This document shows positions 9,754-12,312 of a DNA stretch of 16,675 nt, piece by piece. The notes below the pieces were generated by a model that was not told the DNA's origin, made no database searches, and saw only the letters and a list, made by a program, of their open reading frames with translations. Positions within the stretch are counted from its first letter, which is position 1, and every line of letters begins with the position of its first letter. The stretch comes from a virus (taxonomy: Duplodnaviria > Heunggongvirae > Uroviricota > Caudoviricetes), in IMG/VR virus record IMGVR_UViG_2639762982_000011; one strand, written 5' to 3'. A program made the position numbers and the translations under genes.

Positions 9754-10455
9754 TTATTCTGATTCTCGCTCAAAAAACGAGCTAATAAGGGGAAGCCAAT
9801 CCTCTGACACTTCGCGAGGTCGCGGTTTGCCGTGGAAAAAGATTATTCGGCAGTCCTTTGGTAATGCCCCATTCCCCCTGGAGTAACGCGCGCTCGCATA
9901 TTTTGAACCAGGTTCCACAACATCGGCCTTGTAACTTACAAACCATCCTGGATACAGATCCTGAAATGCTGGTGTATCATCGCCCATAACCTTCCGTAAG
10001 AACCCCTGATCACCCCAGCACTCAGTAGTGACACAACGAGAAATCCAACCTTCCGGATCTTGCCAGAATGAACTCCAGATATGCGCTTTTACACTATTTG
10101 GTATCCACAGGGCACCGCTACCACGATATTGTGGATGGTAAAAATCCCTAAGCATGGTGAAGCTGGTTGGTGGATTCTCAAGGATTGGGCGTATATCACC
10201 GGCAATAACTGTGTCCAAATCCAGATAGAACAGATCATCTGTTATATCCGGTCGGAACAACTCGATTTTCGCCCACCAGCCACGGCACTTTTGCCACTGG
10301 TTGATCAATGGGACAACTTTGACGCCAGGTACATGTAAACGCTTCAGGTCTGTCAGGCAAATAATTTCATAGCCTTTTGGCAGTTGATTAACCAGCCACT
10401 GCACATCGGAAGCGTTATAGTCACCACCAGAGCGAAAAACTAAAGCAATCTTCAT
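9754..10455 (-). CDS. Hypothetical protein (233 aa), possible nucleotide-sugar transferase-like fold with DxD-type motif (YLDLDTV)
   Basis: Start ATG overlaps the stop of the upstream phosphatase gene (ATGA at 10452..10455). Functional call rests only on the acidic DLD motif after a hydrophobic strand and is weak. Confidence 0.6.
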
Positions 10456-11144
10456 GCTGCACCATCACCTTTCACTTTCATCAATGTCAGGTTTCCGCAA
10501 AATACGGCACCAGTGTCGATATACTGCTGATTCCAGAATGTCTTCGGGCTTTTCACCGGAGTGTGACCAAAGATAAAACGATCTGCGCCCGAAATTTCGC
10601 CACCAATATCATCCATCGAATCACTGATACGCTCGCGCGCCCAGACAACGTTGAAAAGCGGCACCTCCTTACCGAATTGGTATTCATTATCCGGATAGTC
10701 GGCATGGGCTATAACGATAGTTTCTTGCCCGGTGTTCAACTCAATGATATAGGGCAGACGCTTTACCAGCTCCACCAGCGCCCAGGCTAATATTTCCTGA
10801 TCAGTGTCCAGCATGAAGAACCATTGTCCGCCATTCATTAGCCAGTTATTCACGTTGCCATCTGGACTTAACGCATCAATCATCAGCCGCTCATGGTTCC
10901 CCATCACTGCCCTGAACCAGGGCATCTGCAATAGTTCCAGACATTCGACATTTTCAGTACCGCGATCGATAAGGTCGCCGACCGATATCAGTAAATCCTG
11001 CGCCGGGTCAAAATCCACACGATGGAGTTCGGACATCAGTCTGGTGTAGCAACCATGCAGATCACCAACAACCCAGACATTCCTGTATTTGGTACCGTCG
11101 ATACGGTGATAAATTGTGGGTGCCATCATGTATTCTTCAGCCAT
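10452..11144 (-). CDS. Ser/Thr protein phosphatase, lambda PPase-like metallophosphoesterase
   Basis: Motifs GDLHG, GDLIDRG, GNHE, plus FIFGHTP and [13 protein letters not shown]. Nearly colinear with the phage lambda phosphatase as I recall it. Alternative start ATG 11129 overlaps the upstream stop (ATGA). Confidence 0.9.
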
Positions 11145-11752
11145 TCTTTAAGAGTCATCTGCGGAATACCTCCCATTTTCCCGCATGAAACAACGTCAAT
11201 CTGTTCACGCGCAGACTGGAATAACAAAGGCAGGTGACTTAGATTTTTTGGCGTGCCGCCGGAGTGAACACGTAGTTCTTGCGTAGCGTCAACGCCCACC
11301 AGGGCTACATGTTTGAATCCGATATGGAAAGCCAGGTTCAGAGCACCATATGCACTATTGCCGCTGGCAATTTCATTCTCATCTTCGCAAAGGCCGAAAT
11401 GTGCGGACCAGCGCCACGCCCACCACTCGGGAGAATTCGTATTTTTTGGCTCTGTGCCGCGTTCAGCCACACGACGGAAGCACAGAATGCCGTCTCTGAC
11501 TTCACGTTCTTTAACATCGGGTAGTGCCATGCAATAACAAACACCACGGCGACGGCGGCCACGACCAACGCGCCGCATATTGTCTGGCGATGGATCAAGT
11601 GTGAAAAAATAAGAAGCGCGGTTAAGCCAGTCGATAGCCCCATTGACCGCTATAATCGGCACTCCGCGCGGCGCAACAAAGTTTGCGGCGCTTGGGCCAC
11701 TGCCGACGATAATAACGCGATCACTGCCTCTAAATTTATTCTTGGGAAACAT
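11126..11752 (-). CDS. Hypothetical protein (208 aa) with N-terminal VIIVGSGPS...IIAVN motif; paralog of the 11650..12312 product; possibly MptE/DUF115-like
   Basis: Shared blocks with the 220-aa paralog: GSGPS, IIAVN, hV(A/V)LVG(V/Y)D. ATG 11752 with AGGAG 12 nt upstream. Family assignment is from memory of motif style only. Confidence 0.7.
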
Positions 11753-12312
11753 TGAATTGCACTGCTCCTACTTGCATTCAAAATATGTAAATCTGCGTGT
11801 TTTTTGCGGGTATCCAGGAACTGCTGTTGCCATTTTGAAATAGACACCTGCGTTGGATTCCGTAGGGCTTGAGGGTGCGCGCCATGCCAATGAAGGCCGT
11901 TTTGCAGAGAACAGTCATAGCCGACTAATACCACTACTTCAGCCCCTGATTCAGCAGCCAGACTGATAGCCTGCGCGCCGCTATTTACCCCTTCCGCCGG
12001 TCTACAATATCGCCTGTACTCCAACGAAAATGATTTCGCCGCCGCCAGGTTGGCTGTCACTTTGCGGAACCTCCCTCCCGGTATGGTGGAACCGTATTGC
12101 TTCCACCATGACAAATCACCGGCGTATAAGGCATAAATGTCATCGAACATCAGCCAGGAATTGTTAACCGCAATGATTGAACAGCCAGTTTTTTCTATAG
12201 CAGCACAGTCCTCACGAGTGAGTGACGGACCGCTACCGACACAAAAAACAGTCCTAGTCGCCCTGGGTGGTATGTTCATTCTCAGCTGCAAATTCAGCCT
12301 CCAGGCGAGCAT
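11650..12312 (-). CDS. Hypothetical protein (220 aa as called; likely start ATG 12279, MNIPPRATRTVFCVGSGPS...); paralog of 11126..11752
   Basis: Motifs FCVGSGPS, SIIAVNNSW, VVVLVGYDC align with the paralog. C-terminal 19 aa has no counterpart in the paralog and overlaps the downstream gene start by 103 nt. Confidence 0.7.
   Translation of the reverse strand: MLAWRLNLQLRMNIPPRATRTVFCVGSGPSLTREDCAAIEKTGCSIIAVNNSWLMFDDIYALYAGDLSWWKQYGSTIPGGRFRKVTANLAAAKSFSLEYRRYCRPAEGVNSGAQAISLAAESGAEVVVLVGYDCSLQNGLHWHGAHPQALRNPTQVSISKWQQQFLDTRKKHADLHILNASRSSAIQCFPRINLEAVIALLSSAVAQAPQTLLRRAECRL

Follow-up and report, generated by a model that had tools for sequence, protein, structure and literature searches.

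Conserved sugar-transferase-like genes in the pmg operon of phage P1 form a mobile cassette and a candidate pathway for protein glycosylation

Adhesin-dedicated cytoplasmic glycosyltransferases are known from the pairs Aah/AIDA-I, TibC/TibA and HMW1C/HMW1, and the Maf enzymes (PF01973, MptE-like/DUF115) are flagellin glycosyltransferases. A precedent among phages is provided by the mycobacteriophages (Che8 and its relatives), whose virions are glycosylated by phage-encoded glycosyltransferases; these modify virion proteins in the course of lytic growth, and plaques form without them, as summarized in PMC11256854. Here we compare with these systems an operon of P1-like elements, pmgN-pmgO-pmgP-ppp-pmgQ, found in a window of 16,675 nucleotides (the whole stretch analysed; IMG/VR record IMGVR_UViG_2639762982_000011, Caudoviricetes), where its four larger genes span positions 9754..12312 of the minus strand. 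Three of these, pmgO, pmgP and pmgQ, constitute a conserved unit that recurs in diverse phages and may encode a protein-glycosylation pathway.

Alignment by megablast of window positions 7400-16675 gave 98-99% identity to phage P1 and relatives over 97% of the query, and positions 1-7600 are 100% identical to the E. coli plasmid NZ_MN510446.1; we therefore take the source to be a P1-like phage-plasmid. The operon matches that of P1 without gaps at 98.3% nucleotide identity, and each of its proteins differs from its P1 counterpart by two to four residues. The locus has been annotated previously: P1 records (AF234172 among the sources) already give the operon the gene names used here, describe it as C1-repressed and place it between tail/baseplate genes and pmgR-pmgS; the P7 annotation lists the same genes as hdmA-D and ppp, with hdmA-D called 'head morphogenesis' in a record without supporting evidence; and fold-level labels exist in RefSeq and PHROGs. 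New here are the delimitation of O-P-Q as a conserved cassette to which Ppp does not belong, the systematic linkage of this cassette to head and adhesin genes, and a testable mechanism. Literature searches retrieved no functional study of pmgO, pmgP or pmgQ, of phage DUF115 proteins or of virion glycosylation in Gram-negative phages. Although E. coli genetics relies heavily on P1, these 'putative morphogenetic' genes have stood without an assigned function since 2004. That three of them belong to a mobile, sugar-transferase-like cassette dispersed across phages of many Proteobacteria converts an annotation gap into a testable hypothesis, namely that Gram-negative phages glycosylate their virions as mycobacteriophages do.

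Folds and relationships of the encoded proteins

PmgO (220 aa; pmgO, 11650..12312, minus strand) and PmgP (208 aa; pmgP, 11126..11752, minus strand) each carry the sequence VGSGPS near the N-terminus, the feature by which the original prediction recognized them as a paralogous pair. Direct comparison by BLASTP aligned only 16/40 residues (E 0.002), whereas hhalign of the two family profiles covered 163 columns with a probability of 98% (E 1.8e-13); the paralogy is therefore real but ancient. Characteristic segments of PmgO are VGSGPS, NSG, GYDCS and HWHG, the last containing two invariant histidines (H141 and H143) in an unstructured segment that follows GYDCS. PmgP displays an invariant His173 and a tryptophan-rich insert, SPEWWAWRW; its gene is the most conserved hallmark of the cassette, and its family comprises 521 clusters among 1.84e9 representatives.

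Matches to PF01973 below the family threshold were obtained with 28/28 members of the PmgO family and 28/29 of the PmgP family, and two relatives pass that threshold (P0044, 44.6 bits; P0251, 44.1 bits). The AlphaFold2 model of PmgO, with a predicted local distance difference test (pLDDT) score of 87.7, shows a Rossmann-like fold of the sialyltransferase/MptE type, with thiamine pyrophosphokinases and GT29 sialyltransferases among the lower-scoring structural matches. PmgO was modelled alone; MAFFT had placed PmgO homologs onto the PmgP half of the O-P fusion P0044 (alignment A4). A fold search of BFVD returned only uncharacterized phage DUF115-like proteins. PHROGs labels PmgO an 'alpha-2,3-sialyltransferase', and the GxGPS, (N/T)SG and G-x-D segments do align with the GT42 enzyme Cst-II of Campylobacter jejuni; comparison with Cst-I/Cst-II nevertheless gives E-values of 0.3-0.8, which are not significant, and no sialic-acid pathway lies beside the cassette; the label 'sialyltransferase' is to be read as a fold-level annotation. 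Compared with Maf proteins (the chain in 5mu5 has 632 residues), PmgO and PmgP are minimal domains of about 200 residues that lack the flanking substrate-binding domains, score below the Pfam threshold, and occur as a paralogous pair with a GT8-like partner, in hosts (E. coli K-12, for example) that make neither CMP-pseudaminic nor CMP-legionaminic acid (CMP, cytidine monophosphate).

That the matched Pfam family is MptE-like admits a different reading, in which PmgO and PmgP resemble MptE and thiamine pyrophosphokinase and pyrophosphorylate a small molecule or sugar, the product being used or decorated by PmgQ. The alignment of the sialyl-motif-like segments with Cst-II speaks against this, as does the company kept by the two proteins, whose partners and fusion partners are all glycosyltransferases and methyltransferases; we consider it very unlikely.

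For PmgQ (233 aa; pmgQ, 9754..10455, minus strand), profile and structure searches bear out the earlier designation as a DxD transferase-like protein. Its AlphaFold2 model (pLDDT 94.2) adopts a GT-A fold, and its motifs include an invariant D79-L-D81 (the DxD at 79-81), GDQ at 148-150 and FHGKPRP at 207-213. The DxD and H-G-x-P-R-P segments align with the metal-binding motifs of GT8 enzymes, in agreement with the pattern H-x-x-G-x-x-K/R-P, and a profile search of the PDB matched the Skp1 alpha-galactosyltransferase (E 2.3e-6). PHROGs applies the label 'glycosyltransferase', and no Pfam family was matched at E <= 0.1, the Glyco_transf_8 model included. Relative to GT8 enzymes (glycogenin, LgtC, GlyE) and the Skp1 enzyme, PmgQ is smaller and only 13-16% identical; we describe it as a putative GT8-like retaining glycosyltransferase. 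Transmembrane segments were not found in any of the cassette proteins.

The fourth gene, ppp (10452..11144, minus strand; 230 aa), encodes a Mn-dependent Ser/Thr protein phosphatase of the lambda NinI type, in line with the lambda-type assignment of the original prediction. It resembles the lambda enzyme (1G5B) from end to end (residues 11-229, E 1.5e-94), with GDLHG, GDLIDRG and GNHE matching in the alignment; it scores 59.3 bits against the Metallophos cut-off of 21.5 (9e-16), belongs to phrog_246, and does not reach the equivalog cut-offs set in NCBIfam for two models of chromosomal protein-Ser/Thr phosphatases, NF008516 and NF007425. It differs from the lambda gene in its location within a glycosyltransferase operon, an arrangement peculiar to some P1-like elements.

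Conservation, partners and genomic settings of the cassette

To establish which genes travel together, we scanned six-frame translations of all fetched loci with hidden Markov models of the PmgO, PmgP and PmgQ families and of Ppp. An initial scan of IMG/VR with the PmgP profile recovered P1-like loci only and was redone with a distant leading sequence and a DNA pattern. The 196 PmgP loci collapsed to 43 clusters at 90% identity, and 32 of these had at least 2.5 kb of sequence on either side. PmgP has PmgQ beside it in all 32 dereplicated loci and PmgO in 23; Ppp is present in three, all from P1-like lineages, and other P1-like elements, Cronobacter phage JK004 for example, carry O-P-Q without Ppp. 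The co-occurrence envisaged for all four genes in the original prediction thus holds for pmgO, pmgP and pmgQ and fails for ppp. Natural fusions join the same proteins in several orders: O-P (P0044), P-Q (P0214 and P0283), Q-P (P0304), Q-P-methyltransferase (P0265) and methyltransferase-P (P0300). A methyltransferase dependent on S-adenosylmethionine occurs in 5/32 loci and a further putative nucleotide-sugar transferase in 5/32; methyltransferases of the FkbM type and of class I, as well as a GT-B enzyme, are also among the partners. From the counts and fusions we define the conserved unit as O-P-Q, a variable glycan-assembly cassette with a P-Q core; methyltransferases, a GT-B enzyme and a protein resembling nucleotide-sugar transferases, all inside the cassette, make up a pattern typical of glycan assembly. 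The phosphatase gene, which separates pmgP from pmgQ, is a lineage-specific insertion. No homolog of pmgN was found beside the cassette in other phages, and genes for the synthesis of nucleotide sugars, CMP-sugars included, were not seen in or beside it. All identified hosts are diderm.

This distribution bears on the earlier proposal of a host-takeover or counter-defence module, in which cytoplasmic proteins of the host, or its signalling nucleotides, would be targets of transferases and phosphatase together. The absence of Ppp from 29/32 cassette lineages counts against it, although this broad-specificity lambda-type phosphatase has kept its place in the operon in three P1-like lineages that have diverged. 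Direct C1 control and a sigma-70 promoter mean that the operon can be expressed early in P1, and the genes are dispensable in laboratory K-12, as are many counter-defence genes; outside P1, however, the cassette resides in late structural operons and morphogenetic blocks, it shows no likeness to known anti-defence families or matches in PADLOC, and antirestriction activity was unchanged in P1 knock-outs of pmgO, pmgP and pmgQ (PMC9024508). We find no indication of such a role and judge it improbable.

The original prediction had also allowed for a defence system, which here would be an anti-phage system carried by the prophage; it could not name one, and on that point our searches agree. PADLOC-DB yielded no significant match (best E 0.024-0.03, on short stretches, with PmgP and PmgQ unmatched), and therefore nothing points to defence. 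Prophages and phage-plasmids often do carry defence cargo, and a type I restriction-modification system lies next door in the window, but the operon is C1-repressed in the lysogen and the cassette is embedded in the virion gene blocks of many phages, which makes this proposal scarcely credible.

The genomic settings outside P1 are predominantly those of virion genes. In lambdoid prophages (of Citrobacter, E. coli, Hafnia and Alloalcanivorax) the cassette lies between the lysis genes and terminase. Prophages of Pseudomonas, Zhongshania, Ochrobactrum and Bradyrhizobiaceae carry it behind the major capsid gene, either immediately or with one gene in between, and loci L008, L105 and L119 show the immediate arrangement; in Rhizobiales prophages it comes after genes for the portal, a collagen-repeat protein and a small adaptor-like ORF (open reading frame). 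When Pfam assignments were pooled for 24 dereplicated loci that are not P1-like, the three upstream ORFs included ten portal, eight HK97-type capsid, six prohead protease and about eight terminase genes, and the three downstream ORFs included tail-completion, head-completion, gp10-like and tail-tube genes. The cassette is co-oriented within these head/tail operons, and genes resembling glycosyltransferases are thus linked to structural genes in the dereplicated loci, the arrangement expected of virion glycosylation. Mycobacteriophages, with their Gram-positive-like hosts, differ in that their glycosyltransferase genes are located towards the genomic 3' end, according to the summary in PMC11256854, whereas the cassette lies between head and head-tail joining genes; on P1, moreover, no glycan has been observed.

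Late expression of this kind would also precede packaging, as glycosylation of phage DNA for anti-restriction would demand, and DNA-modifying glycosyltransferases are well known from phages such as T4. However, ordinary restriction enzymes cut the DNA of P1, for which no sugar modification is known; the cassette has no hydroxymethylase or base-modifying genes beside it and keeps to head and tail genes, not replication genes. Together with the unaltered antirestriction activity of the P1 knock-outs (PMC9024508), this renders DNA an extremely improbable acceptor.

A second type of setting is chromosomal. In five species-level Enterobacteriaceae genomes the trio flanks a gene for an inverse autotransporter of the invasin/intimin type in conserved synteny; PmgP in these loci is 55-59% identical to the protein of the window, the adhesin barrel matches PDB 4e1t (E 3.5e-84), and other proteins with Ig repeats are encoded close by. 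An Erwinia contig shows the same adjacency of cassette and adhesin. Functionally, the arrangement recalls Aah/AIDA-I-type pairs, in that the cassette genes adjoin a large outer-membrane adhesin gene; it differs from them in that Aah, TibC and HMW1C are GT9-like or GT41-like whereas the cassette enzymes are Maf-like and GT8-like, and the linked inverse autotransporter is a putative acceptor only.

Several individual loci show further features. Two P1-like phage-plasmids (L173 and L187, about 11134..12569) carry an invasin/intimin-like beta-barrel gene within the variable cargo region, at a distance of about 4.5 kb from pmgP on its downstream side, and its product has 35% identity over about 495 aa to the invasin-type adhesin of the Pseudescherichia island (L099:3976-7512). 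In the Rhizobiales prophages, the collagen triple-helix repeat protein has a conserved C-terminal domain (L113:4258-5091 and L115:6188-7378; related loci L114:6617-7672, L116:6482-7357 and L117:6098-6601); its gene stands between those for the portal and the PmgO-type protein, and its product is a candidate glycosylation acceptor or head fibre. A Sphingomonadaceae prophage (L118:4362-6224) encodes a portal with a C-terminal Acb1 phosphodiesterase domain directed against the cyclic-oligonucleotide-based anti-phage signalling system (Phage_portal_3 2e-99, Acb1 6e-42). Variant cassettes, in which a PmgO-type gene is accompanied by one for a 280-aa protein with or without a methyltransferase, come immediately after the HK97-type capsid gene in 18/80 D3-like loci (18 loci among L208-L287; other sites are L005:6561-7403 and L119:8603-9589); in a Hafnia prophage the variant follows the lysis genes. 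The conserved partner protein of these variants, of 280-330 aa, has no Pfam match. Pfam gave no support for reading this partner, in Hafnia and D3-like prophages, as a GT9 heptosyltransferase.

A candidate protein-glycosylation pathway and its main alternative

The explanation that we favour, tentatively, is that PmgO, PmgP and PmgQ form a cytoplasmic glycosyltransferase pathway that attaches a glycan to a protein acceptor, most likely a structural protein of the virion. PmgO and PmgP would be two soluble enzymes of the Maf/sialyltransferase-like type and PmgQ a GT8-like retaining hexosyltransferase, acting together during lytic growth to build a short glycan. In P1 and other phages the acceptor would most likely be a surface-exposed virion protein, whether capsid, decoration, fibre or tail. 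Donors would be nucleotide sugars present in any Gram-negative host as products of its own metabolism: for PmgQ probably a hexose activated by uridine diphosphate (UDP), and for the Maf-like pair probably a CMP-activated keto-deoxy sugar, a choice suggested by the lack of sugar-activation genes in the cassette and by its exclusively diderm hosts. CMP-Kdo (Kdo, 3-deoxy-D-manno-octulosonic acid) would be the sole universal candidate. Other phages would extend the pathway with methyltransferases and further glycosyltransferases, and Ppp, inserted in one branch of P1-like elements, would stand outside the conserved mechanism. We infer glycosyltransferase activity and a protein (virion) acceptor from the folds, the fusions and partners, the lack of membrane components, the placement in structural operons and the adhesin-linked relatives.

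A number of observations weigh against this interpretation. The PF01973 scores of PmgO (23.2 bits) and PmgP (20.9 bits) do not reach the gathering threshold of 34.6, and the fold of the two proteins also houses ATP-dependent pyrophosphokinases. The 111-kb lytic coliphage EP_H11 carries its cassette close to a DNA ligase gene, away from the head genes. Ser/Thr-rich C-terminal extensions were sought in the capsid proteins, where the tails proved short and did not differ clearly between cassette-positive and cassette-negative relatives. No glycan has been reported on P1 virions, a paper on the P1 virion proteome makes no mention of protein glycosylation, and we know of no precedent for the glycosylation of proteins with Kdo. 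Control in P1 is of an early type, by a sigma-70 promoter under C1, and not only by a late promoter. Single-gene deletions and CRISPR interference (CRISPRi) knock-downs of pmgO, pmgP, ppp and pmgQ leave plaquing unimpaired (PMC9024508; PMC10695390), and knock-outs leave antirestriction activity as it was (PMC9024508). The cassette is, moreover, found across phages with unrelated capsid, portal and terminase types, a mobility more simply explained by a universal host acceptor.

The last point leads to the main rival, in which an envelope glycolipid shared by all Gram-negative hosts, such as the Kdo/heptose inner core of lipopolysaccharide (LPS) or another lipid-linked glycan, is modified at the cytoplasmic face of the inner membrane; the altered receptor would spare progeny from loss on debris or block superinfection. 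A host-encoded acceptor fits transfer among phages with unrelated structural proteins, the identified hosts all bear LPS, and the invariant Trp/Arg-rich insert of PmgP (SPEWWxWRW) could be an interfacial or sugar-binding element. Yet the cassette includes neither membrane proteins nor flippase-type partners, it is co-oriented within head/tail operons, and on chromosomes its relatives are neighbours of adhesin genes and not of LPS loci; repression through a C1 operator in the P1 lysogen further implies that it is not a module for lysogenic conversion. A faint precomputed Pfam match of the O-P fusion to WaaZ_KDO_III was not reproduced in a direct scan, so the proposal of Kdo derives from the reasoning on donors given above. 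On balance we regard envelope modification as rather unlikely, and the takeover, pyrophosphokinase, DNA-modification and defence readings as less likely.

Returning to protein glycosylation, the adhesin-linked relatives invite a broader and more speculative extension, which we put forward as an unlikely but consequential possibility: that the trio represents an unrecognized core of Gram-negative protein O-glycosylation, in which the Maf-like pair would use CMP-Kdo or another universal keto-deoxy donor and the GT8-like enzyme would extend the product, the acceptors being capsid or other surface proteins of the virions of P1 and many prophages and, in some Enterobacteriaceae, adhesins of the invasin type. 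If true, virion glycosylation would have its first example among Gram-negative phages, and protein glycosylation its first of the Kdo type. Glycosylation of their virions by Gram-negative phages, if it occurs, would matter for the immunogenicity and stability of phages and their interactions with receptors, both in therapy and in the ecology of phage-plasmids. Should the acceptor be LPS, the cassette would constitute a new kind of receptor modification in the lytic phase. With either acceptor, the phosphatase is no longer to be read as part of the mechanism.

Operon architecture and neighbouring genes

The sequence confirms four overlapping minus-strand ORFs, as the original prediction had described, and their membership in a single translationally coupled operon; missed at that stage were a fifth gene, pmgN, and the upstream C1 operator and promoter. 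Positions of P1 features were carried over from AF234172, the coordinates of locus L001 and of the window being offset by 4421. One feature transferred in this way is Oppp (Op83), an operator of the C1 repressor that lies upstream of the operon at 12453..12469 (plus strand); its sequence, TGTGCACTAATTAATTT, has four mismatches to the operator consensus and for that reason fell outside our operator scan, which allowed at most three mismatches and returned four matches against 0.07 expected. A predicted sigma-70 promoter, PpmgN, is situated just upstream of Oppp within the 3' end of pmgM (promoter-like site 12501..12473). The small gene pmgN (12254..12409, minus strand; 51 aa in the P1 annotation, with the ORF open to 12451) heads the operon in the P1 annotation, overlaps the start of pmgO by 59 nt and differs from P1 PmgN at four residues. 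CRISPRi knock-down of pmgN lowered P1 plating about 70-fold (PMC10695390), a result at odds with the lack of effect of a pmgN deletion and of knock-downs of all genes downstream (PMC10695390).

Gene overlaps read from the sequence amount to 103 nt for pmgO/pmgP, 19 nt for pmgP/ppp and 4 nt (ATGA) for ppp/pmgQ, and the true start of pmgO may be Met12 (12279). The pmgO-pmgP overlap (11650..11752) is dual-coding, and what each frame specifies is conserved: for PmgO its C-terminal helix, for PmgP its GSGPS loop. Taking pmgO as reference, pmgP is read in the -1 frame, and a heptamer, T_TTC_CCA, occurs at the start of the overlap; the natural O-P fusion known elsewhere (P0044) is in frame. Frameshifting nonetheless seems unlikely, because the conserved PmgO element would be lost.

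The terminator anticipated after the last gene is present as an intrinsic terminator (9687..9752, minus strand), a hairpin at 9700..9727 followed by a U-run and situated between two inverted C1 operators. RNA folding of this region gave a free energy of -26.9 kcal/mol (z -8.7), which no shuffled sequence equalled. The operators, at 9687..9703 and 9736..9752, are Op86b/a of the next operon, pmgR-pmgS, and their inverted arrangement around the terminator means that the transcript can form a 13-bp outer stem about the hairpin.

A second phosphatase had been noted at 7610..8116, and this gene, Pap, indeed encodes a phosphatase of the haloacid dehalogenase (HAD) superfamily (HAD_PNKP, 3e-11), closer to the HAD phosphatase domain of polynucleotide kinase-phosphatase than to acid phosphatase; its suggested connection with the operon does not hold, as Pap is part of another transcription unit and in no case accompanies the cassette. 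PmgM (12476..13054) is VRR-NUC nuclease-like, matches the PHROG 'Holliday junction resolvase' (4.8e-27) and likewise does not accompany the cassette. The type I restriction-modification system of the window is complete (hsdM 1298..2854, hsdS 2851..4107 and hsdR 4169..7345, plus strand) and fills the site that pmgT-pmgU-pmgV take up in P1. Still present at 7594..7610, and facing the 3' end of hsdR in this arrangement, is Op88, the C1 operator that governs pmgT in P1.

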